DNA of 64,000 nucleotides from a virus. Lineage: Duplodnaviria > Caudoviricetes. The stretch is taken from positions 1 through 64,000 of the IMG/VR virus record IMGVR_UViG_3300028591_000158; one strand, given 5' to 3'. Position 1 is the stretch's first letter; every line of letters starts with the position of its first letter. The notes below the pieces were generated by a model that saw only the letters and a program-made list of their open reading frames with translations, was not told the DNA's origin and did not search any database. Of the stretch, positions 21,528 to 57,997 are shown piece after piece. Both the position numbers and the translations under genes were made by a program.

Positions 21528-21537
21528 GGAGTAAAAT

Positions 21538-22671: not shown

Positions 22672-22690
22672 AAAGAAAGGAGATTTAAAC

Positions 22691-23731
22691 ATGAAATTAA
22701 CATACATATTGCCTACATGTGAACCTGATTCAATGTTTAAATTCCTTTTACCGACTATTTACTTACTAAAACCAATAAAACACTTATTAGAATTTAATAT
22801 ATGTTTTCAACCGCCCTATACTAAAAATGATATTAAAAAAGTATTAGATGAATTTAAAAAATGTCACATAAAAGTTAATTATATGTTTAAAGATTATAAA
22901 GTTGTAAAACCTTATACTCCTTTAATTAAAATGAGAAATGATTGTGCTATGATGAGCCCTAATTCAGATATATATGGATTAATTGATGATGATATGTCTT
23001 TTGAAGACAAATCTATTTGTGGTTATATAAGAGATATGATTAATAGATTTGAAACTGAGTCTAGCTTAGCAGCTATATCTTTTTATAATCAACCTGAAAT
23101 GAATTATAGAGAAAATTTTTATTCAACTAATGCAGGTTTATTTTATAGGGGCGGTAAATACTATGGTTTTAAAGGCTTACTGCCAAAATATATAACTGAA
23201 TTTAATAAAAAAGTTAATTTAAAAGTTCCTTATAATAATGAAAACTTATTACGGTTGTTTGGCGGGCATCAAGATAAATTTTGTGCTATGACCAGACTTG
23301 CAACAGGTGATTATGGAGATTGTATAATTAATGTACCAGTAAATCACTTAGAAAATAGAATTGCTCGTGGCGATAAAGCACATGGCTGAAAAGATGCTGA
23401 AATTTTAGAAGGATCAATAGCAAGCTTTATTGTAAAATATTTTAATAGTAGATTTATGGAAACACATGCTTTAACTTTATTTGATAAAGAAGAAGATGAA
23501 TTAATTTATCCTTATAAATATGAAAATCATATTTTAAAAGAAGAGTATGATTTATATGATGATAGGGGTATTATTAAAGATTGGTTTAGCTCATTTAATA
23601 TTAATTGAAAAGATAAAAGATTTATTAATAAATATAATTATTTAGAAAATATTGGTTTATTAGTTGAGCTACCAAAAGATCTTCAAGAGTTATTAGCTAA
23701 TAAAGTAAATGAAATTTATAGTAAAGAGTAG
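22691..23731 (+). CDS. Glycosyltransferase GT-A (paralogue of the 16641 gene), 346 aa, two TGA
   Basis: LPTCEPD, PLIKMRNDCA, YGLIDDDMSF, FYRGGKYYGFKGLLP. Confidence 0.65.
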
Positions 23732-23739
23732 GAGTTATT

Positions 23740-24942
23740 ATGATTGTAAATAGAGAGTATGATATATTTCTAATAACTAAAGATAACTGAAGAGAGCAAG
23801 AAAATTTATTTTTTGGATATAAGACAGTTGATAATGAAGGTATGTGATTAGATGTTAAAAATATAAAAAATAAATTAATTATTACTGGAAGTTATATTCA
23901 ACCTGCTATTGCTATCTATAATCAAAATAATTTCTGAGCAATTTCAAATAGTTGTAAGGTATTGGTAGATTATTTAACTGAAAATAATTACACTTTAACT
24001 AATAATGATGAATATATAGAACAAGATTTAGGCTTAGATGGATATGCTTTTAATTATCCTGAAATAAGTACTAAATGAAAAGAAATAAATTTAAATCCTA
24101 ATTTTTCTCATATAGAAATCAGTAATGATAGTTTATATGTAATAGAAGAAAAAGATAAAGAAAATTTATTGTTTAGCAAAGATTTAAAAGATGGCAAAGA
24201 AATAATAGATGAATGATTTAAAAAGTATTATTTTTATATATTTAAGGAATCAAGTAAAGATAATACTTATATAACTGCCTCAGTTTCTGGAGGCTTAGAT
24301 AGTAGATTCTTAATTAATTTTTGAAAGAATGCTAAGATAAATAAAATTGTTTCTAAATGAGCTAAAAATGATACTGAGACAGGAAATCGAAGATATATTG
24401 ACGGTCTAATTGCTAGGCTAGTAATATCAACTTATACTTCACATAAAAGTAAAATAAATGCTAAACTTAGAACTGTTAATTTAGGAAAAACTACTATTCC
24501 AGAAATAGAGGATGAATTATTTTGGTATGGTATTGCTTATAAACCTAATGAACAAATAACCATCAAGAAGGTAGATAAAAATTCAAATATAAAAACAACA
24601 ATTTTGAGCCTTTCGGGTGTTGGCACTGAATGATTAAAAGCTGGTGCGGGTTGTAAAGATCCTAATTTTATTCTAGGTACAGCTAGAAGATTTTTTATTT
24701 CAAAATTTATTAAGGGATATTATTTAGGTAAATTGGCAACAATATTGCCTTACTTGGATTCAAGTTTATTACAACTAAGAGGTGTTGAAGATAATAGTTT
24801 TCTTTACTTATTATATTTGTTATATAGCCCAGAAATGTTAGAAATTCCATTCTATAATAATACTCAAATATATGTGCCAATAGAAGCAGAATTGGAAAAA
24901 GCAAGGCTAATTTTAAGGGAGTGGAATAATGAAGGTATATAA
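23740..24942 (+). CDS. Asparagine-synthetase-like protein (copy 2), 400 aa, eight TGA=Trp
   Basis: SVSGGLDSR PP-loop; FFGYKTVDNEGM(W), F(W)AISNS; LPYLDSSLL. Confidence 0.7.
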
Positions 24943-26077
24943 TGATATATTTTTTGTAATAGATACTAATAATTATAATGAAAATAAAAAAGATCTATTC
25001 TTTGGATATAAAACAGTAGAAAATGAAGGATTTTGATTGGCTGTAAAACATAGGCTAAGCAAAATTCATATTTATACTAGTTATATTTCACCAGTTATAA
25101 TAATATATAAGAAAGATGATTATTGGGCTATAAGTAATAGTTGTTATTATTTAAATGAATTTTTAAAAGAAAAAGGAATTATTTTAGAAATTAATGAAAA
25201 ATTTTTAGATTTAGAATCTAAGAAAAAAACTTCATTCAGCTATGAATACTATAATGACATTTTATTATATAAAGATTTATTTATAAATAATAATGATGAA
25301 GAGATTGATATTATAAATGGTAAATTAACTTTAACAAAAAAAGATTTTAAATTATTTGAAAAAGATATTAATTTAAACTTAGATATATTAAATAAGTGGT
25401 ATGAAAAATATTACAATTATTTATTAAATAAAGATAATGTTACTTTATCATTATCTGGCGGTTTAGGCAGTAGATTTTTATGGTATAATTTTTTAAGACA
25501 AAATAATAGCTGCAAATTATATTGCTATAATAATAAATCAAATGTAACAGATTATTTAGACGGAAAATTAGCTAAGGAATTGATTAAGAAATATACTGAT
25601 AAAAATTTACTAACTGTAGATAAAGAGCCTAACAGAAATGTAAAAACATTAGATTGTATAAATAACTTAGATATGAAAGAATTGAATCAATTTATTCTTG
25701 GTATCTCTTATAATCCAATGCTTTTAGTTAAGACTGAATGACTAAGAGTTGTAGGTACAGGTTCAAATATATTTAGGTATGAATTTCAAGACTTAAATTT
25801 TTTAAATGGAAATATCAGAAGAAACTGAGTAGCTTCATTTATTGCAAAACATTATTTAATTAATTGTGATCATATTACTCCATATATGGATTCTCTGCTA
25901 TTACAATTAGATACAAAAGAACCTGACTATTTACATGTTATTTTATATTCATTATTTGCTAAAAGCTTATTAACTGATAATATACCATTTATTACTAAAA
26001 ACAAAGTAGGTGAATATAAATTTCAAGAGTTTAGAAAAGAATTATTTGAAAGATTTTCAAAAATAACTAATTTTTAA
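24929..26077 (+). CDS. Asparagine-synthetase-like protein (copy 3), 382 aa, three TGA
   Basis: FFGYKTVENEGF(W), YWAISNS, SLSGGLGSR (Asp-to-Gly in the PP-loop), TPYMDSLLL. Confidence 0.65.
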
Positions 26078-26087
26078 GAGGTAATTT

Positions 26088-27107
26088 ATGGCAATAGAAT
26101 TTTATAAAATGAATAACATACTTTCAATTGAGCCTACTAAAGATTATTTTATGATATGCTGACATATGACAGGCTGATGTAACTATCATTGCCATTATTG
26201 CATTGCAGAGCATTTGAGAACTAAGTGAATTGATGAAAATGTTATAATAAAAAGAGCAATTAATTTAAATAATTTTATAAATAAAAATATTGATAAAAAT
26301 AGAAAAATTGTTTATAAGCTATCTGGGGGGGAAGTTACATATTATAACCTTCCTAAAATATTAGATAATATTCAAAGATTAGATAAAGTTATTGTTGCAA
26401 CCAACTTATCTCAAAAGCTAGATTATTATTATGAGTTAGAAGATTATTGTTTTAAAAGAAATATTCAATTAGTTTTATTATGTAGTTGGCATGATGAAAA
26501 TAAAAATTTTGAAAATAAATTTATTGAATTAACAAATTGATGTCGAAGTAAGCCAAAGCAAAAATTTAATTATAAAGATCCGCAAGCCACAATTGTTGTT
26601 ACAAAAAATTTTGATAAGACTAAGCTAAATAAGTTATTAGATAATAATTTATGAAGGATAAGGCTAACTAGAGAACGTGATGCAAATCAAAAAAATGTTA
26701 GCTTAAGTAATGAAATGCTAGACTATGTATATGAGTATAATAGATTGTATGATAGTAAAGCTATAACAAATGAAAAAAGCTTTTGTTACAAAGTTACTTA
26801 TTCAAATGGAGAGCAAAAGTTTGCTTGCGCCTCCAATTTAACAAATTTTTTAGATTCCTCTGGTTTTATTCCAGATGGGTACTATTGCACGGCAGGTATT
26901 GACTCTATTGCAGTTCTTCCAAATGGAAATATTTCATTAGCAAGATGTGATTATTTAATTAATAATATCTTAGGGTCTATTGATAACTATGAAAATATTC
27001 AACTCCCAAAAGATGGCATAATATGTCACCTAAATGGTAACAGTTCTGAAAAAAATAAAAGATGTGATTTATGTGCAGGTACTAGACTATTCAAAAATAG
27101 GAGTTAA
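26088..27107 (+). CDS. Radical SAM protein, family B copy 1, 339 aa, five TGA
   Basis: IC(W)HMTG(W)CNYHCHYC, LSGGEVT, ATNLSQ, CTAGIDSIAVLPNGNI. Confidence 0.85.
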
Positions 27108-27113
27108 ACTTTT

Positions 27114-28133
27114 ATGAGACTATATAAGAATAATGACATATTAGAAATAACTAATAAGACTAATTTTTTTAATATAACTTGGTATATAACAGGGTGGTGT
27201 AATTATCACTGTCCTTATTGTATAAATAGTAATATGAAATGTAGTTGAATAAGTGAAGAAATTATTCTTAATAGAGCCGAGAAATTAAATAACTTAATTA
27301 ACGCCTTAAATATAGATAAACCAATATCTTTAAAATTACTTGGGGGTGAGGTAACCTACTATGATTTAATTGCAGTCTTAGATAAGATTAAAAAGCTTGC
27401 AAAAATTATATTAATAACTAATTTATCTCAGCCAATTAGTTACTTTATTAATCTTGCTAGATACTTAGACTCAAGAGAAATAAAATTTATTTTAATTTGT
27501 AGTAAACATGAAGAAAATAATGAGTTTGATTCTAAATTTATAGCTTTAAATGATGAGCTAAAAAAGTTAAGAAAAGAAACAAACAGGAAATTTGCTTATT
27601 TTGAACCTCAGCTAAATATAGTGGTTGATAATAATTTTAATTGGAAGAGTCTCAGACTTTTTGAAGATGCTGGAATTAAAAAGATAAATCCTACTGTTAT
27701 GAGAGATTTAAATGAAAAAAATTTAGATGTAACTATGGATACTTTACAGCATATAGACTATTATAAGCAAATACAGCTTGATTATTTTAAGCATAGTAAA
27801 GATACTAGTAAAGGTAATAAAGAGATAAATTATTCCTTTGATGTTAAGTTTAATACTAATACAGAAGAATTTACTTCATTACTTAATTTAACTAATTTTA
27901 TTGATGCTAATGGATTTATTGGTACTGGCTATAATTGCTCATGTGGTATTAATACTCTTGCCATTTTACCAAATGGTAATATAGTAAAATCTAACTGTTT
28001 ATATTTAGCTGATAAACCACTTGGAAATATCGATGATAATATTGACATAAAGCTAGATAATGAATTAGTTAAATGTAAACTTAAGCCAGAGCAGCGCTGT
28101 ATCCTAGTAAGTGGAGCAAATATCTGTAAATAG
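27114..28133 (+). CDS. Radical SAM protein, family B copy 2, 339 aa, one TGA
   Basis: ITWYITGWCNYHCPYC, LLGGEVT, ITNLSQ, CSCGINTLAILPNGNI. Confidence 0.85.
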
Positions 28134-28151
28134 CTATGAAAGGATTTTGAT

Positions 28152-29738
28152 ATGAAGATATTATGTTATAATATATCGCATGAATCAGCTTGAATGTATC
28201 ATGATACAGAAACAAAAGAATTATATTTTTTTAGTGCTGAACGTGAATATAATACAAAAGATGCAACTATAAGAGAAACAGACCCAATTAAAATCGCAGA
28301 AATGAAATTTGGTTTTGATAAGAAAAATCCAGAGCACATTTTAGTTGGTTGAGTTAATTATTGAGGAACTTTCGTCGATAAAGAAAAGGCAAATATTCCT
28401 GAAACAAAATTATATAAAAAAATCAAAGATAATGTATTTGTTATAGATCATCATTTTGCGCATATCTTATCAAGCGTTGCTTTTAATAACTCTTTAAATC
28501 AAGGTATTGCAATAGACGGTCAAGGTGATCATAAACATACTGGGTTAGTTGTCAAGAATATTCACGATTTAAACAATTTACAATTTAATTATCTTCCTAA
28601 TGACCCTCCAATAGGAAAATTATTTAATATATTCTCAGCTGATTTAATTAAAAGTAAATATATGACTACAACTGATGAATTAACTGATCGACATCGAGCT
28701 GTTGGAAAAATTATGGGATTACAAGCTTATGGAAAAATAAATCAAAGTATTTATAATAAATTAGAAAGTTTTGAATTTAGTCTAAATAATTTAAATCAAT
28801 TTAAAAATTATTTTAGTGAGATATTTTCTAATATAAATGTTTATGATGAAAATCAAAATTTTGATGCTGTAACTACCTTATATCAATTTTTAACAAATAA
28901 AATTGTTGAAATTTTTAATAATAATTTTAAAGCTGGTGATAATATTGCTTATTCTGGTGGTTGTGCATTAAGTACAGTGGCTAATGATAAACTAATAAAA
29001 AATGGATATAATCTAACTATATGTCCTGCAGCTGGAGATATGGGATTATGTATTGGTATGTTAAAATTTATAGATTTATATTATAATTTAAATATAGATT
29101 TTTCAAATTTAAAATATGCATATTATAATGATGAACCAAATATTATAATACCAGAAAAAAATATTAAATTTGCAGCTAAATTATTACAACAGAATGAGAT
29201 AATAGCATTTGTTAATGGGGCTGCTGAAGTAGGTCCTAGAGCATTAGGTCATAGATCTATATTAATGAATCCTTCTATTGAAAATGGCAAAGATTTTATT
29301 AATGAAAGAGTTAAACATAGAGAATGATGAAGACCATTCGGTGGATCAACAATTGATACTAAAATTATTAAGAATTACATTCCATCGAATTTAGATTTCT
29401 TTATGTTAAGAAATTATGAGATAAAGGACGAATGACAAACTAAATTAAAGAGCATTTGTCACAAAGATAATTCATGTAGATTACAGATAATTGAAGATAA
29501 GTTAGAACCTTTATACCAAGTAATAAATGAATTTAACAACTTAACAGGTGTTCCTGTTGTATTAAATACATCATTTAATATTGCTGGCAGACCAATTCCT
29601 AATTATAAAAAACATATTATGGAAACATTTAAGGCATTAGATGGAATAAAATATCTTTTTTATAATGATAAAATATATAAGAAAGAAAATATTTCTAAAT
29701 ATGGCGGAGTAATAGATATTGTTGAAGTACAATTATAA
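28152..29738 (+). CDS. O-carbamoyltransferase, NodU/CmcH family, 528 aa, six TGA=Trp
   Basis: DHHFAH, IDGQGD, SGGCALS, PAAGDMG, EVGPRALGHRSIL, KHRE(W)(W)RPF, PVVLNTSFN. Confidence 0.93.
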
Positions 29739-29761
29739 GTAAATTGAGGCAGTGCATTATT

Positions 29762-30730
29762 ATGAAATATATGATTAGATTAGACATATGTACACTATGT
29801 ACTTTAAATTGTGTAGCATGTCCTATTAGAAAAATAAACTATGGTAAATTAAAAGCTGGATATGTTAAATTTGAAATATTTAAAAAATTTATTGATGAAA
29901 ATTTAGAATTAATACGAAAGATTGAAATATCAAGTGCTGGAGAACCTTTATTAAATCCGGACTTGATTAAAATTTTAAAATATGCTTATGAAAATAATAT
30001 TGTAATTACTTGTAGAAATGGAACTAATTTTAATTCATTAGATGATGCCAAAATTAAGGCTTTAGTTGACTATAAGGTAGAGGATATTGTATTCGCGTGT
30101 GATGGGGCAACACAGGAAACATATCAAAAATATCGAAGAAATGGTGATATTAATAAGGTATTTGATTCAGTTAGAAAAATACAAGAATATAAGAAAAAAA
30201 TTAATTCAGAATATCCTAGATTAATTTGACAATACATTATTAGAGAATCAACTGAAAGTAAAGAAGAAATTGAGTTGGCTAAAAAGTTAGCAAAGGAATT
30301 TAATGTTGAACTTAAATTCAAACTTACACACGAAATTAATTACACACCAAAAAATTCGCAAGAATTGAAGGAAATAACTGGATTAAAATATGTTACTAGA
30401 AAAGAAGCAGCTGATAATGGAGAATATTATTTAACAGCTTCAAAATGTAGACAATTATGGAATTCACCAGCTATAAATTGAAATGGAGATTTATTGGGAT
30501 GCTGCTGAAATTGAGAACCATTTAATATAAATGTATTTGAAGTTGGATTAGCAGAGGCTCTAAAAAATAAAGAATACTGTAAAGCAAAAATGTATCTGAG
30601 CGATAAAATTGAAAATGATAAATCTATACCATGCATGAATTGTGAGTTTGGAGAAATTGTTCATAATAATCATTTAATTGATGATTGTTGAATTAAAACT
30701 CATGATCCACATTATAATAAGGAAAATTAA
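29762..30730 (+). CDS. Radical SAM/SPASM protein, family A copy 2, 322 aa, five TGA
   Basis: CTLNCVAC, SAGEPLLNP, ACDGATQETY, IN(W)NGDLLGCC, CMNC. Confidence 0.85.
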
Positions 30731-30733
30731 ATT

Positions 30734-31525
30734 ATGAAAAAAGATATTAATAGATTGATTATAAATGAAACAGAAAATAAACCAATTTTAAATTATATAG
30801 AAACAAATATTGTTATGCATTGTAATTTAAATTGCAGAGGTTGTAATCATTTTGCTCCGTTATATTCTGAAAATGAAGATATGATTGATTTTGATAGATG
30901 AACCAAAGCTGTTGATCGAATAGCTGAAATGTTTGAAATTAAAAAATTTGGTATTTTAGGTGGTGAACCTTTACTTCATCCAAGATGACTAGATTTTTTA
31001 AGATATTTGCGAAATAAACTACCTAATGCTTTATTAACATTTAGAACAAATGGTATTTTAAGCAATCTATTAGTAGCAAATAAAAAAGAACTAGAAGACT
31101 TAAAAGTAGAATTAGTTATAAGTGATTACAACTTAAGCTTAAATATTGACAAATCACTTTTTAATAGAACATTCGACAGAATAAAAACAAAATTTGAACA
31201 CCCTTCTATAGATTCTGAAGGAAATCAAAGTAAAACAGACAGTTGATTACAGTGTAGAAATAAGCATTGTTTAGCTTTAACTGAAGATTATATCTATTGT
31301 TGTAATTATGGTCTGTCTTTTAACAAATTAAATGAATATTTTGATTTAAAAATAGATATAAATGATGATGTAAAAATTAATATATTTAATTCAAGTGCAA
31401 ATGATATAATTAAATGAACAAGACACGCTAAAGATTGTTGTAAATATTGTAATTTAAATAATAGAAAATATGATCAAGAATGAGGATTAAGTAAAAAAGA
31501 AAAATCTGAATGAATTATTAATTAG
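30734..31525 (+). CDS. Radical SAM protein, family C, 263 aa, six TGA
   Basis: CNLNCRGCNHFAP, LGGEPLLHP, FRTNG, CCKYC, C-terminal (W)GLSKKEKSE(W). Confidence 0.85.
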
Positions 31526-31535
31526 AGGTAATATT

Positions 31536-32564
31536 ATGTTTAAAAGTTCTGATATAGTTGCTATAATTAAAGATCAAAATAACGCAATGTTTGATTTAAG
31601 CTGAAAATTAACTTCGTGGTGTAATTATAACTGCTCTTATTGTAGTCAAGAAACAAGACAAAAAAAATTTAATTCACAGCCTATATTAGAAGCACGGGCA
31701 AAGAATATAGATAAAATTATTAATCAGTTATCAAACAAAAAAGCAATTCAATTATCTTTAATTGGTGGAGAGATTACTTATTATAATTTAATAGATATTT
31801 TAAAAAATATAAATTTATCTAAAATTTTTAAAATAAGACTTACTACTAATTTCAGCCAAGATAACAATTATTTTATAGAACTTTTAGATTTTTTATATAA
31901 ACAGAATAATAATTTAAAAATTACTCTCACTTTATCATTTCATGATGAATATATACCATTATCATCATTTTTAAATAAAGTTGTTAAACTTCATGAAAGT
32001 ATACAGACTAAATATAATAATAAATCTAAAGTTAAACTCAATGTATCATTAGTAATAAATAACGAGTTAGACTGTACTTTATTAAAACAATTTATTACTA
32101 ATTATCCTAAATTAACTATTTGTCCTAACATACAACGTGATATAAATGGAAAGATTGTTGATCTAGATAAAGAGCATATGGAATTTAAAACTAACTTAAC
32201 CACTAAAGAAAATTTTAAAACTAATAAAATACTACTAATATTAAAATCAAATAAACATATTTATTTTTCTGATACTAGTACTATTCTTAATAATATAGAT
32301 GAAAAAGTGTTTATATCAAAAGGCTACTTATGTAGTGCTGGTTTAAATAATCTTAGAATTGATGAAAATGGTAACATTCGAAGAGGACAGTGTCCATTAG
32401 AATTAAGCAAAAATATAGTAGGAAATATAGATAATGATAAAAATATTATATTACCAACTGAACCAATTAAATGTTCTTTCGAAAATAGTAGCATTAAATC
32501 AGGATGTATTCTATGCCCTTGGGTAAATATTAAAATTGATACTGAGGAAGGCATAAAACCATAA
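31536..32564 (+). CDS. Radical SAM protein, family B copy 3, 342 aa, one TGA
   Basis: LS(W)KLTSWCNYNCSYC, LIGGEIT, TTNFSQ, CSAGLNNLRIDENGNI. Confidence 0.85.
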
Positions 32565-32678
32565 TGAAAAAAAAATAAAAGAAATTAAAAATAAATTAAT
32601 AGTTAAGTGTCAGTAAGATAGCTGTCCTTTTTGTGGTATAATCCATATCTGAAAATAGAAATGGGGTTGTAAAATAAA

Positions 32679-33692
32679 GTGTATAAACAAGATGACATTA
32701 AATCTATAAATTTAATAAATAATGATTTTTTTGTAATTAAATGATTTGTAACAAATTGGTGTAATTACAGTTGTTCATATTGTATTCAAAATCCCAGAGA
32801 TAAAGCCGGCTGAATTTCAGAAAATAAAGTAATAGAAATTGCTAAAAAGTTAAATGAAGCCCTTTATAACTCTAATATTACAAAAAGAATTTCTTTACAA
32901 ATATTAGGTGGAGAAGTAACATTTTATAATTGATCAAAAATATTACCTTATATAGAAAATGTTGGTAAAGTATTTATAACTACCAACTTTTCAAATACTT
33001 TAGAATATTATAAAGGTTTATATACTTATTGTTATTCTAATAATATTGTCTTAAAATTATTATGTAGCTATCATGAAACAGGAGATGAGTTTTTTACTAA
33101 ATTTATAGAATTAAAACATTGGTGTGCAGATAATAAATATCACCTTCCTAATCTATCTTTTGTAGTGGGAAATGATTTTGATTTTACTATATTTGATAGA
33201 TTTCCTGAGATAGCAAATAAAAGAGCTAGTATGTGCCCCTTAGTTCTCCCCGATCAAAGTACAGTAAAATTAAATGAAGGGGTAATAACTAAAATCAAAG
33301 AGATTAAAAGTAGAAAAGCAAATAATAGTAAACAAGAATTAAAAACTAGAGCTGAAAAATTTATTTTTAAAATTAATGATGACTTTATTGTTTGTAGTGC
33401 TCCAGAATTATTTGTAAATTTAGAAAAGGGTTATTTAGATATTAAAAAAGTATATTGTGATGCAGGCATTAATTCTATTAGTATTGATCCTGATGGTAGT
33501 ATTACACGATGTGGTAATAATTCGCAATTACTTGGTAATTTATTAACAATGGAGAATCCTAAGTTTAATTTAAAATCAAGTATCTGCGAAGATAAACAAT
33601 GTAGATTGTGCCAACCTGTAAATATATGTAGAGTCATTGATTCAACCGATGATCCATTTATAAGGAGGGATAGGACATGCCCAAAGAAGTAA
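32679..33692 (+). CDS. Radical SAM protein, family B copy 4, 337 aa (GTG start inferred), three TGA
   Basis: IK(W)FVTNWCNYSCSYC, ILGGEVT, TTNFSN, CDAGINSISIDPDGSI; start chosen by upstream stop at 32670 and paralogue length. Confidence 0.8.
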
Positions 33693-33775
33693 TTACAATA
33701 AAAGCTAATCCTGGTAATGATAAATCTTTTAAAGATAATCATATAGAAAGAGAGAAAGATACTAATGAATTATAA
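33677..33775 (+). CDS. 32-aa small ORF overlapping both neighbours
   Basis: AGGAGG 8 nt upstream of ATG; MPKEVITIKANPGNDKSFKDNHIEREKDTNEL. Confidence 0.45.
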   Translation: MPKEVITIKANPGNDKSFKDNHIEREKDTNEL

Positions 33776-34934
33776 AGATTTTGATATATTCTTAATCACA
33801 AAAGATAATTGAAAAAGTCAAGATGAAGTTTTTTATGGCTATAAGACTTTAGATGACAATGGGCTTTGATTAAAAGTATTTTGAGAGGATAGTTGCTTAT
33901 TAATTAAGGGCAGTTATATTCAGCCTTATATTAGTATTTATCAATCAGATGATTACTGGGCTATTTCTAATAATTTTTATTGTTTAGAACAACATTTAAT
34001 TAGTAAGAATATTAAGCTTACTAAAAATAAAGCATTTGAAGAATGGGACAAAGATTCTTTTAGGTTCTGTATTCAAGCAAGTCCAACAGAAACTTTATAT
34101 AATGAAATTAAATTTAATGATAATTTTTCTTATTTAAAAATATTAGATGGTAATTTAGAAATTATAAACTTGGAAATAGATTGCTTTACAAAACCTTTAG
34201 AGGATTCAAAAGAAGATTTATTAAATTGATATAAAAAATATTATGATTATTTGCATACTTTACCCGAAGGTACTGTATCAGCCCAACTATCTGGCGGATT
34301 TGATTCAAGAATATTACTACCATTGTATGAAGATATAAATGGAGTCAGTATAAACGCACAGTGGAATAAAGAAGATGATGATAGTTATCGTGATGGATTA
34401 GCCGCAAGATTATATATTGCAAAAAAATATCCGCACTTATTTGATAATTTACTTTCAAAAGAAGATAAAACTTGAGTTGCTAATAATGATAAGGCTAAAC
34501 AAGAAAATGCAAAATTAATAACGCAATTTATCACTTATGGTTCATATCCTATAAAAGGTGAGCTAGACTTATCAAATATGATGCCTTGTAAATCAACTAG
34601 TGGTAAAATAAGCTTAGCTGGAATGTCTCTTGAATTACATAAAAATAATCTAGCTAATAGCGTGCAAGAAATTGAAACAACTACAAGAAGATATTTTGTA
34701 AATAGATATTTAATTAGATATTATAGATCAAAACAAAGAGTAGTATGTCCTTTTCAAGATAAGGAATTATTAAAGATTAAAGGTTGTCGTGATTTAACAT
34801 TTGTTTATATATTATTAGGATTATTTAATATTAACGATGAAAAATTACCATATTATACTTATTTAAATAGTAAACCAGTTTTAAAGTTTGTTTCAAATGA
34901 AGAGATAGAAGAGGCGTTATCTTTATTAAAATAA
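33765..34934 (+). CDS. Asparagine-synthetase-like protein (copy 4), 389 aa, five TGA
   Basis: FYGYKTLDDNGL(W), YWAISNN, AQLSGGFDSR, CPFQDKELL. Confidence 0.7.
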
Positions 34935-35406: not shown

Positions 35407-35871
35407 ATGGAAAATAAGATTGGTTTTTGGGGTATTACTGATACCTATGGTTGCTTTAGTAATTTTTATCCGTGTAAATTTAAGTGCTTTAATGATTTAG
35501 AATTTAATTGTACTGAGCAAGCTTTTATGTATGCTAAGGCAATAACTTTTAATGATATTGAAATAGCAAACAAAATTTTAGCAGAGTCAGATCCTAAGAA
35601 GATTAAAGCTTTAGGTAGACAAGTTAAAAATTTTAATGATGATATTTGGAATGACTTGAGATTTATGTATATGCGTTTAGTTAATTATAGTAAATTTAGT
35701 CAGAATATAGAACTTTTAAATAAATTAGTTAGTACTGGATCTGCTTATTTATTTGAAGCATCACCTTATGACTCAATTTGGGGTATTGGTAAATTTGGAG
35801 ATGGTCAAAATTTATTAGGACAAGTACTAATGCAGATTAGAGAAGATTTTATTTTAATGAGGAAAAAGTAA
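35407..35871 (+). CDS. NADAR (YbiA-like) family protein
   Basis: FSNFYPC, TEQAFMYAKA, PKKIKALGRQV, EASPYDSIWGIG, GQNLLGQVLMQIR. Confidence 0.9.
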   Translation: MENKIGFWGITDTYGCFSNFYPCKFKCFNDLEFNCTEQAFMYAKAITFNDIEIANKILAESDPKKIKALGRQVKNFNDDIWNDLRFMYMRLVNYSKFSQNIELLNKLVSTGSAYLFEASPYDSIWGIGKFGDGQNLLGQVLMQIREDFILMRKK

Positions 35872-43388: not shown

Positions 43389-43736
43389 ATGACAAGTCAA
43401 GAATTTGATAAAATAGTTAATGAAACATTAGAAAATATTAAGAGTACTTTACAACGTAAATCTAAAGAATATAACTTAGATGAAGATCGTTTAAGTGTAT
43501 TTAAGAGAGCTGCATCAATTCAGCATCAAACACCTTCACAAGCATTACTTGGTATGCTTACTAAACATATTATATCAATATATGATTATGTAGAAACTGA
43601 TGCTTATTTTTCAAATGAATTAGCAGCAGAGAAAATAAATGATGCTATCAATTATTTATTGTTATTATATGCATTAAATAAAGAGTATAATGATTATAGA
43701 TTGAGTCTTAATGCAGCTCAATCAAATAAAGAATAG
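43389..43736 (+). CDS. All-helical nucleotide-modification-associated protein (DUF1599/Nmad1-like)
   Basis: RKSKEY...GMLTKH...EKINDAINYLLLL; GGAGG RBS before ATG 43389; directly upstream of DHFR and thyA-like genes. Confidence 0.45.
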   Translation: MTSQEFDKIVNETLENIKSTLQRKSKEYNLDEDRLSVFKRAASIQHQTPSQALLGMLTKHIISIYDYVETDAYFSNELAAEKINDAINYLLLLYALNKEYNDYRLSLNAAQSNKE

Positions 43737-43754
43737 TTAAGGAAGTATTATTAA

Positions 43755-44282
43755 ATGATTAATGGTATTGTATGTGTAGATAAAAATTTTGCAATTGGTA
43801 AAAATAATGCTGAAGGTAAACCTCAATTATTATTTAATATTTCTGCTGATATGGCTTATTTTAAAGAGAAAACATTACATAATATAGTTGTAATGGGTTA
43901 TACAACTTATTTATCCTTACCAAAAAAGCCTTTATCTGATAGAGTTAACCTAGTTTTATGAGATAAAGCAACATCGCCAGATTGTTTAAAAGGCTGTATT
44001 ACATTTAATAATTTTGATGTATTATTAAAATTTGTTAAAGAGCTAAGCAAAATATACGAAGTATTTGTTATTGGTGGTGCTTCTGTTTATAATTTATTTA
44101 TGCCTTATTATGATAGATTATTTATAACAAAAGTAGCTGCAGAAGATAAAGAAGCAACAGCTTTTTTTCCTAATATAGATAAAGATACTAATTTTGAACT
44201 TGTAAGCAAAATGAACTATGCACCTAAAAATGAGTATCCATTATCATTTACAATTTATTCAAGAATAAAGGAGAATAAATAA
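43755..44282 (+). CDS. folA: Dihydrofolate reductase, 175 aa (joins 43755 and 44100 through TGA 43959)
   Basis: AIG, ADMAYFKEKT, VVMGYTTYLSLPKKPLSDRVNLVL, VIGGASVY, LFITKV, AFFP. Confidence 0.92.
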
Positions 44283-45121
44283 TGTCAGTAGCAGATAAGT
44301 ATTTTAAAGATGCAGTTAATAAGATTTTAACTAAAGGCGTTTCAGATGAAGCTTTTGAAGTCAGACCTAAGTGGCCTGATGGAACTCCAGCTCATACAAG
44401 AAAGATTCATTGTTATATTGCAAGATATAACTTAGCTGAAGAATTTCCAATTTTAACTCTTAGAACTCAAGCCTTTAAATCTTGTGTTAAAGAGATACTT
44501 TGGATGTGGCAAAAGAAGTCAAATAAAGTATCTGAATTAGGTGCTCATTTCTGGGATGCCTGGGAATTAGAGGATGGAACTATTGGTAAGTCTTATGGCT
44601 ATCAAGTAGGTCGTAAATTTCACTTTAAAGAAGGTTTTATGGATCAAGTAGACTTATTACTATATAAGTTAAAAAACAATCCTATGGACCGAAGAATGAT
44701 AGTTACGCTTTGGGATAACGAAGACTTAAAAGATATGGCGTTGGCTCCATGCGTATTTCAATCAATTTGGGATGTTGCTGACGGTAAATTAAATATGACT
44801 TTGATACAAAGGTCAGGAGATGTTCTTGCTGCCGCAGCCCCAGGAGGTTTTGATGTGGTTGAATATGCAATTTTACAGCACATGATTGCCCAAGTATCTG
44901 GTCTACAGGTAGGGGAGTTAGTACACATTGTCACAAATTTACATATTTACGATCGACATGAAAAGTTAGTTAAGGAAGTACTTGAAAATCCTGAATATCC
45001 AGCACCAAAGTTCTGGATTAATCCTGAAGTTAAGAATTTCTATAACTTTAAACCTGAAGACTTTAAATTAATTGATTATAAATCGACTAAGGCAAGCAGT
45101 TCATTCGAGGTTGCAGAATAA
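44282..45121 (+). CDS. Thymidylate-synthase-fold enzyme; probable dCMP methylase/hydroxymethylase (Asp at the Asn specificity position)
   Basis: FPILTLR, LAPCV, QRSGD, NLHIYDRH; FDVVEY where ThyA has FN/WNVVQY. Confidence 0.75.
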   Translation: MSVADKYFKDAVNKILTKGVSDEAFEVRPKWPDGTPAHTRKIHCYIARYNLAEEFPILTLRTQAFKSCVKEILWMWQKKSNKVSELGAHFWDAWELEDGTIGKSYGYQVGRKFHFKEGFMDQVDLLLYKLKNNPMDRRMIVTLWDNEDLKDMALAPCVFQSIWDVADGKLNMTLIQRSGDVLAAAAPGGFDVVEYAILQHMIAQVSGLQVGELVHIVTNLHIYDRHEKLVKEVLENPEYPAPKFWINPEVKNFYNFKPEDFKLIDYKSTKASSSFEVAE

Positions 45122-45438
45122 TGAAATTAGTTAGAGACAATATTCCAAGTATTATAAAGCAACAAGTAGGTAAATGTAACTATCATGCTTGTAAAAATAA
45201 TGAAGAGCTTTTAAATTATTTAAATAAAAAAGTTTTTGAAGAAGTTGATGAATTCTTAAAAGATCCATCAGTAGAAGAACTAATTGATATAATAACTGTT
45301 GCTATTGCTATTCTTAAAAATAAAAATGTATTAGATGATAGCTATTCATTAGATGATATATTTGTAATTTTAGAAAATAGCTATAACACAAAAGCAAGAG
45401 AACGTGGCGAATTTAAAAAAGGTTATATTTTAGAATAA
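45121..45438 (+). CDS. MazG/phosphoribosyl-ATP-pyrophosphohydrolase-like nucleotide pyrophosphatase
   Basis: KLVRDNIP, KVFEEVDEF, EELIDI, KARERGEF. Confidence 0.8.
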   Translation: MKLVRDNIPSIIKQQVGKCNYHACKNNEELLNYLNKKVFEEVDEFLKDPSVEELIDIITVAIAILKNKNVLDDSYSLDDIFVILENSYNTKARERGEFKKGYILE

Positions 45439-45444
45439 GAGAGG

Positions 45445-46443
45445 ATGATTGTATTGCAGTTTATAGATAGACTAGTAGAAAGCTATGAGAATAGCAATTA
45501 TACTAATGTATTAATTGAACAATTTGTTAAATTATATATTGAGCCTTGGAGATTTAATTATTTAGCTAAGTCTTGGAAATGCCCAAAAAGTGAAGTTAAT
45601 AGAGCTATTTTATCTGCAGAAGATTGGGAGAAAGAAAGACAACTATTTTTAGCAGCTGGAAAAAATATAGTAGTTAATAATACTGCTGAAGTTTGTGCAA
45701 CAGCTTATAATTATGGTAAAAGCTATTTAGTTTGGCTAGAATTTATAGCTCCTGATAATACAGTTCATAAAATTGATGCTTGGATACAAGAAACAGGTAA
45801 AAATGCCAATTTTGGTAAGCAAGGAAAAAATGCTGAAAAGTTTATTGATCCAAGAAGTCCTTTATGCCAAGATATATATGATTCAATAGTTAATAAAGGA
45901 TATATAGATCCTAACATTGCTAAGCTATTAAATAGTGTAGGTTCATTAACTTGGACTGGTAACAAAGAACAAAGAGTACAAAAGAAATTAAATAGTTTTA
46001 TTCAACAAAAATTATTTGAAAAAGCTGTTGATTATGCAATAAAAAATTGTAAAATAAATGTTGTTTTATTACAATTAGATAAGTTTGATGATTACTTATA
46101 TAAAGGTGATCCTGGAAAATTAGCTGATTATGATTTAAGAATAACTACAAGTACAGATATATTTAGTGCAAGAATAGATCTTAAACTGCTTGAAGATAAT
46201 GATACTGCAAAAAATCAAAATCCACATGATGCTGATTTATTAATTGTATCTAATTGGAGAGATGCAAAAGTTGGATTTTATAGAGTTACTGGAAACCCTG
46301 GAATTGAAAAAACAGAAGAGTTTCAAACAATCTTACAATTATTTAATGAGATGCTAATTAGTGCAGGCAAGTGTTTTATTCATATTTCAAAAATCGATGA
46401 AGAAACAGGCAAAGTTGATTTTAATATGTTTGGAAATATTTAA
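45445..46443 (+). CDS. Hypothetical protein, 332 aa
   Basis: Long open ORF with RBS; possible PD-(D/E)xK-like ADYDL..IDLK segment, weak. Confidence 0.55.
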   Translation: MIVLQFIDRLVESYENSNYTNVLIEQFVKLYIEPWRFNYLAKSWKCPKSEVNRAILSAEDWEKERQLFLAAGKNIVVNNTAEVCATAYNYGKSYLVWLEFIAPDNTVHKIDAWIQETGKNANFGKQGKNAEKFIDPRSPLCQDIYDSIVNKGYIDPNIAKLLNSVGSLTWTGNKEQRVQKKLNSFIQQKLFEKAVDYAIKNCKINVVLLQLDKFDDYLYKGDPGKLADYDLRITTSTDIFSARIDLKLLEDNDTAKNQNPHDADLLIVSNWRDAKVGFYRVTGNPGIEKTEEFQTILQLFNEMLISAGKCFIHISKIDEETGKVDFNMFGNI

Positions 46444-47418: not shown

Positions 47419-47829
47419 ATGAAGATTAAGTTGTTTAAAGAAATTACTTTACCACTTAAAAAACGTGATAGTGATGCAGGTTGGGATGTTTTTTTACCTG
47501 AGGATGTCACTTTTAAGGCACATTCACTTACAACTGTTGATTTAGGTTTTGGTGTAAAATTACCTAGTGGCTATGCAGGCTTATTTGCAATGAGAAGTTC
47601 TGTTTGTAAAACAGGTATGACTATTCAAATGCCGCTTATTGATGAAGGATATCTTGGAGAATTACATTTATTAGTACAAAATTCAACAGATACTGACTAT
47701 AGTTATAAGAAGGATGAAAGAGTTTGTTCTTTGTTTATTTTCCCAGTATTTAGAGATACATTAGAAGTAGTTGATGATTTAGGAACATCAGACAGAGGAA
47801 CTAATTGGTCAGGTAGCTCAGGTAAGTAG
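47419..47829 (+). CDS. dut: Trimeric dUTPase
   Basis: DAGWDV, RSS, LIDEGYLGE, DRG..SGSSG motifs. Confidence 0.88.
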   Translation: MKIKLFKEITLPLKKRDSDAGWDVFLPEDVTFKAHSLTTVDLGFGVKLPSGYAGLFAMRSSVCKTGMTIQMPLIDEGYLGELHLLVQNSTDTDYSYKKDERVCSLFIFPVFRDTLEVVDDLGTSDRGTNWSGSSGK

Positions 47830-51867: not shown

Positions 51868-53619
51868 ATGCAAAGTCTTTTCGGAGATGAATTTAATATT
51901 GATTTTAATAAACCAAAAGCTAAAGAATTAGCTAGTAAAGCAAGAGTAACAGCTGGCTCTGAAGAATACGACCCAATGAAAATTCTTAAAAGTAAAAAAG
52001 TTTCATTGGAAGACCAACTCTTAGTAATTAAAGAACAAGTCATTAGGGTCTTAGGAAAACAACGTAAAAATATTGTTGTTATCAGAAGTCTTAATGACTT
52101 TTCTGACTATATAACAGCTTGTATAGAGTCTGGCTATATTTCAGTAGATACTGAAACTAATAACTCACTTGATCCAGTTACTTGTAAACTAATGGGTCTC
52201 TGTCTATATTATCCTGGTGGTAAGCAAGCCTATATTCCAGTAAATCATAAAGATCCAAAAACAAAAGAAAAGTTATCAAATCAAATAACTGAAAAACAAA
52301 TAAAAGAGCAATTACAAAGAGTAAAAGATGCAAAAACATTTGTAGTAATGCATAATGCTAAGTTTGATTTTAGTGTTATAAAGTGTACTTGTAATATTGA
52401 ATTATTAGCAGATTGGGATACTTCTATTGCAGCTGCTTTAATTGATGAGAATGAAGAAAAAGGATTAAAAAAGCAATATATATTACATATTGATCCTTCA
52501 CAACAAAAGTATAGTATTGAAGGATTATTTGCTCATATTCCTTATGCTTATGTTGATCCAGAAATATTTGCATTATATGCTGCAACAGACTCATTAATGA
52601 CTTTTAGATTATTTAAAGAATATCAAGAACCTATTTTATTAGCTGAGGATAATAAGAAAGTTAAATGGGTATTTGATAATATTGAAATGCCATTAGTTGA
52701 AGTTACAGCTAAAATGGAATTAAAAGGTGTATGTGTTGATCAAGCATTAGGAAAAAGACTTGAAGATAAATATAATGCTAAACTTGCAATTGTGGATAAA
52801 AATATTGCAGAAGAGCTAGATAAATTACAAGATAGAATAGTTAAGTGGAAGTTAACTAAAGATGCCAATGACGTTACTAAGAGATATGTACCTAAGAAAT
52901 CAAAATTATCAAAAGAAGCTTTAGAGAAAAGATATCCATTAGTTGATAATGATGGTAAGCGTTATGCAGTTGGAAAGTCTAAGGCATCACAATTAACTGA
53001 CCCAATTAATCTAGCTTCACCAGTACAAATGGCTATCTTATTTTACGATATTTTAAAAGCTCCTATAGTTAATAAAAAATCACCTAGAGGAACAGGTGAA
53101 GAAGAAATTAAGGCAATTGATGAAAAAATGAATATTCCATTATGCAAGCTATTATTAAAACGTAGAGGATTAGTTAAAATTTTAACTACTTATATCACAA
53201 CAATACCAACTCTTGTTGAACATTGGCCTGATAAAAGAATTAGATTCCATCTTGATCAAACAGGTACTGCGACAGGCAGATATTCATCTGGAGGAAAATT
53301 AAAGTTTATGGACGAGACTACAGATGAACCAATAGAAGTGTCGGGTATTAATATTCAAAATATTCCTTCACACGAAAAAAGTATAAGACAATTATTCATT
53401 GCTGACTGTAAATATGATACTGTTGAAGCTGAAAATAATGAAATTTCAATTCCAGAATATACAGAAATTGAAACTGTAAATGGATATAAATATCCAATAG
53501 ACTTAACTGATGCTGATATCATTGTTGGCGAAGATACAAATACAAATTATAAAATAAATAAAATATTATTAGATAACAAAATATATTATATAAATTTAAC
53601 TCCGTTTAACTCTAATTAA
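51868..53619 (+). CDS. polA: Family A DNA polymerase, N-terminal piece (3'-5' exonuclease, thumb) with a 70-aa non-polymerase tail
   Basis: DTET, HNAKFD, YAATD, TGTATGRYSS, NIQNIP..IRQLFIAD; then unrelated tail from 53407. Confidence 0.88.
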   Translation: MQSLFGDEFNIDFNKPKAKELASKARVTAGSEEYDPMKILKSKKVSLEDQLLVIKEQVIRVLGKQRKNIVVIRSLNDFSDYITACIESGYISVDTETNNSLDPVTCKLMGLCLYYPGGKQAYIPVNHKDPKTKEKLSNQITEKQIKEQLQRVKDAKTFVVMHNAKFDFSVIKCTCNIELLADWDTSIAAALIDENEEKGLKKQYILHIDPSQQKYSIEGLFAHIPYAYVDPEIFALYAATDSLMTFRLFKEYQEPILLAEDNKKVKWVFDNIEMPLVEVTAKMELKGVCVDQALGKRLEDKYNAKLAIVDKNIAEELDKLQDRIVKWKLTKDANDVTKRYVPKKSKLSKEALEKRYPLVDNDGKRYAVGKSKASQLTDPINLASPVQMAILFYDILKAPIVNKKSPRGTGEEEIKAIDEKMNIPLCKLLLKRRGLVKILTTYITTIPTLVEHWPDKRIRFHLDQTGTATGRYSSGGKLKFMDETTDEPIEVSGINIQNIPSHEKSIRQLFIADCKYDTVEAENNEISIPEYTEIETVNGYKYPIDLTDADIIVGEDTNTNYKINKILLDNKIYYINLTPFNSN

Positions 53620-53714: not shown

Positions 53715-54899
53715 ATGAGCAAAATAAAAACTAGAACAAGATATAAAATTGTTGGTTCAGATTATTCTGCTCAGGAATAGCCTGAGCCACGATTAGCCGC
53801 ATATATGTCTCAAGATCCAGAAATGAAAAAAGTTTATTTTGAAGGTAAAGATTTATATGCTAGAATTGCTCAGTCAGCATTTAACAATGATTATGCTGAT
53901 AATCTAGAATTTTATCCAGAAGGAACTGAGCTTGAAATTGATGGTAAAAAAGTAATAGCTGGTAAAAAAACTCATAAAAATCCTGAGGGAAAAAGTCGAC
54001 GTTCTGTTGGAAAAACATTACTTTTAGCAGCAAATTATGGCATGGGACCTAAGACTGCTGGTGAAAAAATGGGTAAATCTGCTAAAGAAGGTGGTGAACT
54101 ACTAGAGAGCTTTTTCAAAGGCTTTCCAGTTTTAAAACAAACTATTGAAGAATCAAAAGTATTCTTAAAAAAGAATGGCTATGTTGAAGATGCATTTGGT
54201 AGACGTAGGCATATTCCAGAAATCAATGAAAAGCCGTATGATGCAAGGTATGCTGATGAGAAAAAAGTTGAAGAATTAACTTTTAATCCATTTTTAAATT
54301 GTAATAATAGAACTTTTACAGATGATAAATTAAATAAATATATTACACTTGCAAAAAACACTAGAAATAATGAAGACTTTGATAAATTAGCTAGAGAGGC
54401 TGATCGAGATGGAATTATATTAACAGCTAACACTGGTAGAATAGCCCAAGCTGAAAGACAATGTTTTAATGCAAGAATTCAGGGTTCAGCAGCTTCACTT
54501 ACTAAGCTAGCAATGGTTAATATATTTAATGATGCATTATTAAAAGAATATAAAGCTGACTTAATTATTTCAGTACATGATGAAGTATTAGTTGAGTGCC
54601 CAGATTATTATGCTGACAAAGTTGAAGAACGTTTGCCAAAAATTATGATTGATACAGCTAAGCCATATATTGATATTCCGATGAGTTGTGACCCTTATAA
54701 TGTTACCCGTTGGTATAGTGATGAAATGGCTGCACAGCTAAGAGAAGAACTAGATAAAATGGAAAAAGGTGATCCAGATAAAAATATACCACCAATTGCA
54801 CATGATATTGCAGTTCAAAATATTTATAAAGATCATTGTGAAATTCCAAAAGAAGCTATAGACAAATGTTTAGCAAGTAATGATGATTTAGAGTTTTAA
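53715..54899 (+). CDS. polA: Family A DNA polymerase, C-terminal piece (motifs A, B, C), interrupted by in-frame TAG at 53778-53780
   Basis: Own promoter motif (53664) and GGTGG RBS; MSKIKTRTRYKIVGSDYSAQE*PEPRLAAYMSQD; KTLLLAANYG; SVHDE. Confidence 0.82.
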
Positions 54900-57075: not shown

Positions 57076-57193
57076 GGAGATACTAGATGGCAAGTATTTT
57101 AGAAATTGCTAAAAGACTTGGTATTCTAATTAATAGATATCGCAAAAAAGTTTAATAAACATTGACTAAATTAAATATAAGTAGGAGATGATT

Positions 57194-57997
57194 ATGAAAC
57201 AATATTGCGTATATATCCACAAAAATAAAATAAATAATAAGATCTATGTTGGAATAACTTGTCAAAAACCAATATATAGATGAAAAAATGGTAGTGGTTA
57301 CCCAAAAAGCACACAGCCAAAAATGTATAATGCTATTAAGAAATATGGTTGAGATAACTTCGAGCATATTATAGTAGCAGAATCATTAACTTATGAAGAA
57401 GCTAATAAGCTTGAACAAGAGTTAATACTTAAATATGATTCATTTGTAAATGGCTATAATATGTCATTAGGCGGTGATGGAAATAAAGGACATATTGTTT
57501 CTGAAGAGTTACGTCAACAAATGAAATCTACTCACCGTGTGCCACATCCAGGCGCACAAGGAAAAACATTTTCAGAAGAGCATAAAAAGCATTTAAGTGA
57601 AGCAAGACGTGGTAAAAAATTTGGGCCAAGATCAGCTGAAACAAAAGATAAAATAAGTAAAGCTTTATCTGGAAAAATAGTTTCTAATGAGACTCGTCAA
57701 AAAATAAGTCAAGCAAGCAAAGGACGCCAATCATGAAATAAAGGATTAACTGGCATTCCAGGCCATTTACAATCCGCAGAAACAAGAAGAAAAATTGCAG
57801 AACAAAATGGTTATGCTGTTGGAGCTTATAATTTAGAAACAGATACATTACAGTTAACATTTGTTTCAATTACAAGTGCAATAAACTATTTAAGAAAAGA
57901 AACTCAATATAAAACTGCTAATAGAAATACACTTGTTAATTGTATTAAATTAAAAAAGCTATATTGTGGATTTATATGAAAAATAATTAAAAATTAA
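57194..57997 (+). mobile_element. Free-standing GIY-YIG homing endonuclease with NUMOD3 repeats, 267 aa, four TGA
   Basis: CVYIHKNKINNKIYVGIT, R(W)KNGSGY, KYG(W)DNF, GYNMSLGG, SEEHKKHLS/SAETKDKIS/SNETRQKIS repeats, YCGFI(W)K. Confidence 0.9.

Follow-up and report, generated by a model that had tools for sequence, protein, structure and literature searches.

The DNA of Xanthomonas phage Xp12 is fully substituted with 5-methylcytosine (5mC; bioRxiv 10.1101/2024.12.05.627091), and its genome (MT664984) carries an operon of a thymidylate synthase (TS) homolog, a deoxycytidine monophosphate (dCMP) deaminase and a dihydrofolate reductase (DHFR). Here we describe a TS-family gene in the first 64 kb (hereafter the window) of the 85,043-bp IMG/VR record IMGVR_UViG_3300028591_000158, a tailed virus of the Caudoviricetes. 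Its product is a ThyA-family enzyme with aspartate in place of the asparagine that selects deoxyuridine monophosphate (dUMP), and we consider it probable, from residue comparisons, that this gene forms the core of a dCMP C5-methyltransferase module in which the TS fold has been retargeted from dUMP to dCMP.

Substrate and product have been tied to particular residues in TS homologs, numbered here as in E. coli ThyA unless stated otherwise. In the MetaGPA study (PMC8670742), position 177 is the pyrimidine selector: N177D or N229D converts TS to a dCMP methylase, and Asp179 of the T4 enzyme is needed for the use of dCMP. After selection of metaviromes for modified cytosine, the same study reports, most TS homologs found on modified contigs carry Asp, and Asp177 TS genes co-occur there with PRA-PH/MazG-type, dCMP-deaminase and carbamoyltransferase domains. 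Formation of 5-methyldeoxycytidine in vivo was obtained from five of seven tested Asp177 homologs, and also from the Xp12 enzyme, according to the deaminase study (bioRxiv 10.1101/2024.12.05.627091), which further links 5mC-selective deaminases to Asp177 TS genes and proposes them as suppliers of deoxythymidine triphosphate (dTTP).

Hydroxymethylases of the T4 type have Asp or Glu at position 143, which is the third residue ahead of the catalytic Cys, along with Val at position 83 with loss of the Trp, Asp at 169 and no C-terminal tail; they release tetrahydrofolate and need no DHFR (PMC6400193). In 5-hydroxy-dCMP synthases of the RB69/DLP3 type, Asn replaces Asp169, while position 143, position 83 and the tail are not diagnostic (PMC13326640). 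Position 93 of the E. coli enzyme is described as structurally equivalent to Ser94 of T4, where the S94A substitution abolishes dCMP binding (PMC6400193).

Aspartate at the dUMP-selecting position of a ThyA-family enzyme

The window gene encodes 279 amino acids with no in-frame TGA and matches PF00303 at 1.2e-73 over residues 7-271, with B. subtilis ThyA (1b02/1bko) as its best solved relative (E 5e-77). The initial annotation of this DNA, made from the sequence alone, had proposed a ThyA-like enzyme of the B. subtilis type with an Asn-to-Asp switch at one GAT codon, and each part of this proposal held. In our alignment, the window's G-F-D-V stands opposite the P-F-N-V of the B. subtilis ThyA structures, and the GAT codon, exactly where annotated, encodes an Asp191 that falls in the Asn177 column when aligned with E. 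coli ThyA, phi3T ThyP3, Xp12 TS and T4 gp42. The protein thus lacks the Asn with which ThyA selects dUMP. The other positions that we compared with the E. coli enzyme are kept (Glu58, Trp80, Trp83, Tyr94, Leu143, Cys146, Arg166, Ser167, Asp169, His207 and Tyr209), and the C-terminal tail is complete, ending in FEVAE. On the closest NCBIfam equivalog model, NF002495, the protein scores 289.6 bits, below the cut-off of 327, and it passes the broad model TIGR03284 (165 vs. a cut-off of 108). Its sequence identity is 63% to a cellular Asn-type sister, 48% to phi3T ThyP3, 34% to E. coli ThyA, 24% to Xp12 TS and 23% to T4 gp42.

The same alignment bears on the product. The catalytic Cys is preceded at the third position by Leu (M-A-L-A-P-C), so that position 143 is not acidic, and together with Asp177, Asp169 and the tail this gives the residue set of a methylase, whereas the signature of the hydroxymethylases is absent, with Leu at 143 and both Trp83 and the tail kept. 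Because Leu143, Trp83, Asp169 and the tail are all TS-like, a methylase appears favoured; of the two products named initially, 5-methyl- or 5-hydroxymethyl-dCMP, the former gains from these four positions and the latter loses. A 5-hydroxy-dCMP synthase is ruled out by the retained Asp169. At position 93, by alignment to E. coli numbering, the window enzyme has Ser, its own residue 104. Either Ser or Thr occurs at this position in 17 of 19 Asp-type rows, compared with 16 of 70 Asn-type rows; the residue appears to arise convergently with Asp, and Ser93 may independently add to the evidence that the substrate is a cytosine nucleotide.

Table 1 Positions of the features discussed, given in the window unless another record is named
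Feature	Position	Strand	Notes
Small four-helix protein, phrog_6802	43389..43736	+	possible alternative start TTG 43356; upstream of Asp-type TS in relatives
Dihydrofolate reductase, 175 aa, one in-frame TGA	43755..44282	+	PF00186, phrog_316
ThyA-family enzyme, Asp replacing the dUMP-selecting Asn	44282..45121	+	PF00303; predicted dCMP C5-methyltransferase (5-methyl-dCMP synthase)
GAT codon, Asp191 = E. coli ThyA position 177	44852..44854	+	codon 191; alignment column
MazG-superfamily (all-alpha) nucleoside triphosphate (NTP) pyrophosphatase, 105 aa, candidate dCTPase	45121..45438	+	homologs, motif, predicted fold
332-aa protein, kept in relatives	45445..46443	+	C-terminal domain probably PD-(D/E)XK nuclease fold
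Trimeric dUTPase-family protein	47419..47829	+	PF00692 6.6e-19; phrog_135
Radical-SAM open reading frames	20589, 27114, 29744 (SPASM), 30734, 31536, 32679 (weak)	+	
NodU/TobZ-type carbamoyltransferase, 6 in-frame TGA	28152..29738	+	PF16861 6e-46 + PF02543
Xp12 dCMP methyltransferase (TS homolog)	MT664984, 45326-46195		

A phage clade with Asp beside cellular relatives with Asn

Of the 120 metagenomic homologs closest to the window TS, which are 279-281 aa long and 63-85% identical to it, 118 have Asp at this position, with QRSGDxLAAAxxGG[FW]D as the shared motif of the Asp type, and the genomic contexts of Asp-type genes that we examined are phage replication modules on contigs of up to 220-252 kb. 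The nearest relatives from GTDB species genomes, by contrast, have Asn in 80 of 80 cases; judged by their record titles, these come mostly from gut and rumen Clostridia, Christensenellaceae, Oscillospiraceae, Lachnospiraceae and 'Bacilli' metagenome-assembled genomes (MAGs). A phage clade in which Asp is the rule, set against 80 cellular relatives that all have Asn, points to changed function rather than drift, and the Asp is, on these comparisons, neither a chance nor a private substitution. The two Asn exceptions among the 120 homologs form the sister group of the Asp clade, and one of them, the closest Asn-type sister (63% identity), lies in a bacterial MAG, within a thyA-folA operon amid cell-envelope genes.

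For a wider view, we built a quick maximum-likelihood tree (IQ-TREE) of 90 sequences, comprising the window TS, ten picked close homologs, four references (E. coli ThyA, phi3T ThyP3, Xp12 TS and T4 gp42) and representatives of 50%-identity clusters. The window TS falls within a 10-row all-Asp clade (SH-aLRT, the Shimodaira-Hasegawa-like approximate likelihood ratio test, 95), which is sister to the Asn pair (SH-aLRT 97) and nested in a 49-row mostly-Asn clade whose members have a two-residue loop insertion in common. Asp arises at least seven times on this tree, and Xp12 TS and T4 gp42 lie elsewhere on it, on long branches. The low identity to the Xp12 enzyme and its separate long branch argue that the window lineage originated independently of Xp12, and the tree likewise places its origin apart from T4. 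Samples and hosts seen for the clade are sheep and goat gut, as well as ruminant, horse and human gut MAGs, and a single sequencing run, a sheep-gut metagenome (X1) from which this DNA may derive, contains the entire stretch, sequencing-run comparisons here being made on assembled contigs.

We also searched four complete relatives (G001-G004; 220-233 kb, 95-100% complete), each of which has a single PF00303 gene, of the Asp type. Neither these genomes nor the 85-kb record yielded a second ThyA or a ThyX. Three of the four encode a dCMP-family deaminase, on the strand of the TS gene and at a distance of 3-4 kb from it. Another relative, whose TS shares at least 90% identity with that of the window, lies on a contig of 252 kb, and the full genome of the window phage is expected to measure about 220-250 kb. 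Among other relatives, one locus (L059:10632-11447) encodes FolD, a methylenetetrahydrofolate dehydrogenase/cyclohydrolase, in the same module as an Asp-type TS, suggesting that there the folate one-carbon supply is reinforced by the phage. In 220-kb relatives, the gene immediately 5' of the Asp-type TS encodes an ART-PolyVal ADP-ribosyltransferase (L001:1622-2242).

Coupled genes and the proposed pathway

Both neighbours of the TS gene overlap it by one base, the DHFR stop with the TS start (TAATG, 44280-44284) and the TS stop with the start of the next gene (TAATG, 45119-45123). The translational coupling to DHFR that had been annotated is thus real, with the correction that DHFR holds an in-frame TGA (43959-43961) and is whole only when this codon is read as Trp (code 4): PF00186 matches its halves separately (residues 1-68 and the last 60), while phrog_316 matches the code-4 protein at 3e-38 over residues 1-174. 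Relatives have Cys 20 times and Trp 8 times in the column of this TGA. An RNA-library contig from a different study covers 43699-43979 with 0 differences and carries the identical TGA, which argues against an assembly error; contigs of this kind indicate presence rather than proven transcription. In most relatives' loci, DHFR adjoins the Asp-type TS or lies near it. This coupling favours methyl transfer, since a reductive methylase yields dihydrofolate, in agreement with the initial annotation and with the precedent of the TS-deaminase-DHFR operon of Xp12.

The third gene of the overlapping set encodes a 105-aa protein for which we obtained no Pfam match at E up to 5 and nothing meaningful in NCBIfam or Protein Data Bank (PDB) sequence searches. 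Homologs that are 41-42% identical to it contain PF03819 or PF12643 and are named 'house-cleaning NTP pyrophosphatase', and its Atlas model reaches template modelling (TM) scores of 0.73-0.80 to NTP pyrophosphohydrolase clusters. Invariant positions in the family are K2, R5, D6, E40, E41, E44, E53 and D56, which include an acidic metal-binding motif (EExxE...ExxD). Homologs, motif and predicted fold agree in this case with the MazG-like assignment made earlier, and homologs of the gene stand directly 3' of TS in the closest relatives (L053-L056).

These genes would fit together in a pathway as follows. The TS homolog would use 5,10-methylene-tetrahydrofolate as both one-carbon donor and reductant, yielding 5-methyl-dCMP and dihydrofolate, from which DHFR would regenerate tetrahydrofolate. 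The MazG-like pyrophosphatase would hydrolyse deoxycytidine triphosphate (dCTP), thereby lowering the canonical nucleotide and feeding dCMP to the methylase. Kinases of the host, or phage kinases that we have not seen, would convert 5-methyl-dCMP to its triphosphate for incorporation by the family-A polymerase of the phage, and virion DNA would then carry 5mC for cytosine, as in Xp12. In the relatives, the dCMP-family deaminase may turn part of the 5-methyldeoxycytidine nucleotide pool into thymidine nucleotides, which fits the idea published in bioRxiv 10.1101/2024.12.05.627091 and would explain why no ordinary ThyA or ThyX occurs in these genomes.

Several points weigh against this pathway. 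Substrate and product we infer from residue rules established on other enzymes, and the window TS shares little sequence with the proven Xp12 methylase (24% identity). That methylase has Asn rather than Leu at position 143, so the rule for this position is a correlation only. The dCTP specificity of the 105-aa protein we infer purely from the parallel with T4 gp56 and the domain co-occurrence reported in PMC8670742. Both DHFR and the dUTPase-family neighbour fit an ordinary deoxythymidine monophosphate (dTMP) module equally well, and the carbamoyltransferase on the same contig would, going by PMC8670742, need a hydroxymethyl and not a methyl group. The complete relative G001 has no deaminase, searches of the 85-kb record for a deaminase (PF00383) and a thymidylate kinase (PF02223) were empty, and Pfam scans of the open reading frames (ORFs) at 0.4-16.6, 35.4-41 and 42.7-84 kb gave no nucleotide kinase, in line with the earlier remark that an expected deoxynucleoside monophosphate kinase was not seen. 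The missing deaminase and kinase say little, because the record is only ~38% complete as estimated by CheckV.

Alternative explanations

One alternative is an ordinary TS that makes dTMP from dUMP and either tolerates the Asp or offsets its effect through the altered loop, serving the high thymidine demand of a phage with 27% G+C together with DHFR and dUTPase. Such a role would suit the descent from a cellular thyA-folA pair, the position as sole TS-family gene in the complete relatives and the intact TS catalytic and folate residues, and DHFR with dUTPase is the classic dTMP set; many enzymes of the Asn type share the two-residue loop insertion. In Lactobacillus casei TS, several substitutions of Asn229 keep some activity on dUMP. 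We nevertheless regard this explanation as unlikely, since it does not account for the split between Asp in the phage clade and Asn in every cellular relative, for the convergence of Ser/Thr93 with Asp, or for the switch of N177D/N229D enzymes to dCMP and the way that Asp177 homologs track modified DNA. A MazG-type partner is, moreover, a feature of modified contigs in PMC8670742.

A second alternative is a dCMP hydroxymethylase, whose 5-hydroxymethyl-dCMP would enter DNA and then be O-carbamoylated or otherwise elaborated by products of an island at 16641-34934. This island comprises ~20 co-oriented genes, TGA-rich and very AT-rich, in which, with TGA taken as Trp, six ORFs have radical-SAM matches (five above the Pfam cut-off and one weak). 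Asp177 is shared with the hydroxymethylases, Ser93 occupies the site described as the counterpart of T4 Ser94, and the island places a NodU/TobZ carbamoyltransferase on the same contig. According to PMC8670742, a carbamoyltransferase of this family from a sewage phage acts on 5-hydroxymethylcytosine (5hmC) and co-occurred with TS only on modified contigs, so the idea of a link between the island and the TS gene is not baseless. The residues that define hydroxymethylases, however, are missing from the window enzyme (Leu143, Trp83, and a kept C-terminal tail that seals the active site), and a hydroxymethylase would have no need of the DHFR that is coupled with TS throughout the clade.

The genomic evidence on the island points the same way. 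A distance of 8-15 kb separates it from the TS gene, its surroundings are TGA-rich genes, and we did not find it, carbamoyltransferase included, in any of the four complete relatives, whose TS is of the same type. A scan of IMG/VR with the carbamoyltransferase as single query returned no relatives. Contexts drawn from the protein database place island homologs of other phages either beside gp23 capsid and S77 protease genes accompanied by a UDP-glucose dehydrogenase or next to genes for a Laminin_G_3 protein and a GT1 glycosyltransferase, which fits decoration of glycans or virion proteins at least as well as a link with TS. The initial annotation had suggested that the cluster might elaborate the modified base; this did not find support, the case for it being circumstantial given the absence from the complete relatives and the capsid, glycosyltransferase and sugar-nucleotide neighbours of the homologs. 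A link between TS and island is possible, but we judge a hydroxymethylase feeding the island to be distinctly unlikely.

A third alternative accepts methylation of dCMP but takes 5-methyl-dCMP or 5-methyl-dCTP to be deaminated to dTMP or dTTP, so that virion DNA would be modified little or not at all. The deaminase genes close to TS in three of the four complete relatives are in keeping with such a bypass, as are the AT-rich genome (C makes up 11.4%) and the 5mC-selective deaminases tied to Asp177 TS genes in bioRxiv 10.1101/2024.12.05.627091. We hold it to be quite improbable, as we found a deaminase neither in the 85-kb record nor in G001, the same gene set goes together with full 5mC substitution in Xp12, and a MazG-like enzyme that removes dCTP makes most sense if cytosine is excluded from DNA.

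Finally, we give very little credence to the notion that 5-methyldeoxycytidine (or a hydroxymethyl product) from this enzyme starts an oxygen-independent hypermodification in which the six or seven radical-SAM enzymes and the carbamoyltransferase of the island functionalise the C5 substituent in an anaerobic host, giving a new cytosine derivative; if it were true, these enzymes would replace the O2-dependent TET/JBP-type chemistry of aerobic phages.

Flanking genes of the module

Upstream of DHFR, the small protein matches phrog_6802 at 2.9e-30, and we found its homologs (39-58% identity) 0-2 kb upstream of TS in 18 loci. It had been called Nmad1-like, a name that our searches neither bear out nor rule out: no Pfam family matched at E up to 5, Nmad1/DUF1599 included, and a PDB profile search was empty. 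Its AlphaFold model consists of four helices with a mean predicted local distance difference test (pLDDT) score of 83, for which Foldseek returned only weak MazG-like rows (E>1) and VIA-align generic helical hairpins.

Downstream of the 105-aa gene, a 332-aa protein without a Pfam or PHROG match has relatives (39-51% identity) near TS, and its family keeps an invariant motif, D228-Y-D230...R243-x-D245-x-K247. Foldseek gave nothing significant for its model (pLDDT 64). Nearly all of the top VIA-align rows, over residues 139-330, are PD-(D/E)XK nucleases, at modest Z scores of 4.5-6.6, and Atlas leads are restriction endonucleases with scores <0.9. The C-terminal domain thus probably adopts a PD-(D/E)XK nuclease fold, going by these models, and an attack of the protein on unmodified DNA is only a thought.

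Genetic code and composition

The window has ~27% G+C, with every gene on the + strand. Many of its frames are broken under translation table 11 and close up under table 4, and 94 of 94 ORFs close without gaps when only TAA and TAG are taken as stops. The code-4 ORFs contain 115 in-frame TGA vs. 181 TGG codons, with TGA densest at 20-40 kb. In relatives, the sense codons at TGA columns specify Trp 32 times, Cys 20 times (all at the one DHFR site) and Gly 0 times; because these columns match Trp and never Gly, we conclude from the alignments that TGA codes for Trp in this phage. The same counts rule out code 25, in which TGA specifies Gly. A transfer RNA scan of 84 kb found no suppressor tRNA. 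Reading TGA as Trp has been described before for phages of animal guts (bioRxiv 10.1101/2021.08.26.457843).

With regard to short motifs, CpG is strongly depleted in the 85-kb record (514 observed vs. 1604 expected), TCGA and ACGT are likewise depleted (47 and 54, respectively, vs. 206 expected), and AGCT and GCWGC are over-represented. CpG depletion is frequent in genomes of low G+C content.

Other features of the record

An anaerobic ribonucleotide reductase, NrdD, is spread over two ORFs (442-1800 and 2037-3065), followed by the NrdG activase (3069-3572). The family-A DNA polymerase is also split, into an exonuclease with the N-terminal polymerase part (51868-53619) and a C-terminal polymerase part (53805-54899), and relatives show an equal split (633 + 598 aa in L053). 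Homing-endonuclease-like genes occur in the replication region, with GIY-YIG/NUMOD3 and I-HmuI-like NUMOD matches (57188-57997; L140:9977-11167); unlike most of their neighbours, they hold several in-frame TGA. We also noted a NADAR-domain protein at 35407-35871 (7e-45), a peptide deformylase homolog past the end of the window (L140:7006-7773; PF01327, 1e-15), and, within 3980-7714 and 9766-10278, two 561-aa collagen-repeat proteins together with an Mtd_N (major tropism determinant) protein; these probably form fibres, and a diversity-generating retroelement perhaps acts on them.

Comparison with known systems

Xp12 offers the nearest functional parallel. Its TS homolog and the window enzyme both have the TS fold, Asp177, the catalytic Cys and Asp169, both close with a tail whose last residue is Glu, and both are encoded near DHFR. 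A deaminase of the dCMP family, as in the Xp12 operon, is present in relatives of the window phage, and the predicted product and pathway logic match. The two enzymes differ at three positions, where Xp12 has Asn143, Phe83 and Ala93 and the window enzyme Leu143, Trp83 and Ser93. Gene order also differs (DHFR-TS-MazG in the window vs. TS-deaminase-DHFR in Xp12, with no deaminase found in the window's record), as does the host, which would be a gut anaerobe for the window phage and is Xanthomonas for Xp12.

In ancestry, the window TS resembles the ThyA of gut Clostridia and Bacilli, B. subtilis ThyA and phi3T ThyP3, all of which agree with it in length (the 279-aa type), C-terminus, catalytic residues and pairing with folA. 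The two-residue loop insertion is common to the window TS and the gut-cellular group and is absent from B. subtilis ThyA and ThyP3. Against cellular ThyA, three substitutions stand out (Asn177 to Asp, Ala93 to Ser and Ala147 to Val), along with the score under the NCBIfam equivalog cut-off.

T4 gp42 is similar in having Asp at the specificity position and a hydroxyl residue at the site described as equivalent to Ser94, and T4 resembles the window in having a MazG-superfamily partner, a candidate dCTPase in the window and in T4 the dCTPase gp56, which we take to belong to that superfamily. The T4 enzyme differs in its Asp145 opposite the window's Leu, its Val85 opposite the window's Trp and its lack of a C-terminal tail, as well as in its hydroxymethyl product, with tetrahydrofolate released instead of dihydrofolate.

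The Asp177 TS genes of metaviromes have the same diagnostic residue as the window TS and a similar set of companions (PRA-PH/MazG-type, dCMP deaminase, family-A polymerase and sometimes carbamoyltransferase), as PMC8670742 and bioRxiv 10.1101/2024.12.05.627091 describe them. The latter study screened IMG/VR, the collection from which this record comes. The jumbo-phage clade, its TGA recoding and the descent from Clostridial ThyA are not described in the available text of either source.

If the proposed pathway is true, a large clade of ~220-kb phages packages DNA with 5mC in place of cytosine, and full 5mC would affect escape from restriction, recovery and base-calling in metagenomes, and methylation-dependent defence systems of the gut. 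The lineage would also be a natural experiment, in which phages took up a thyA-folA pair from a cell and Asn177Asp, accompanied by changes at 93 and 147, redirected the enzyme. Systems of this kind have been described in Xp12 and in the metavirome work, and since the principle is established, our finding extends knowledge rather than changing it: what is apparently new is the lineage itself, with its origin from a Clostridial-type ThyA, its tight coupling to DHFR and its apparent abundance in jumbo phages of the gut and rumen.

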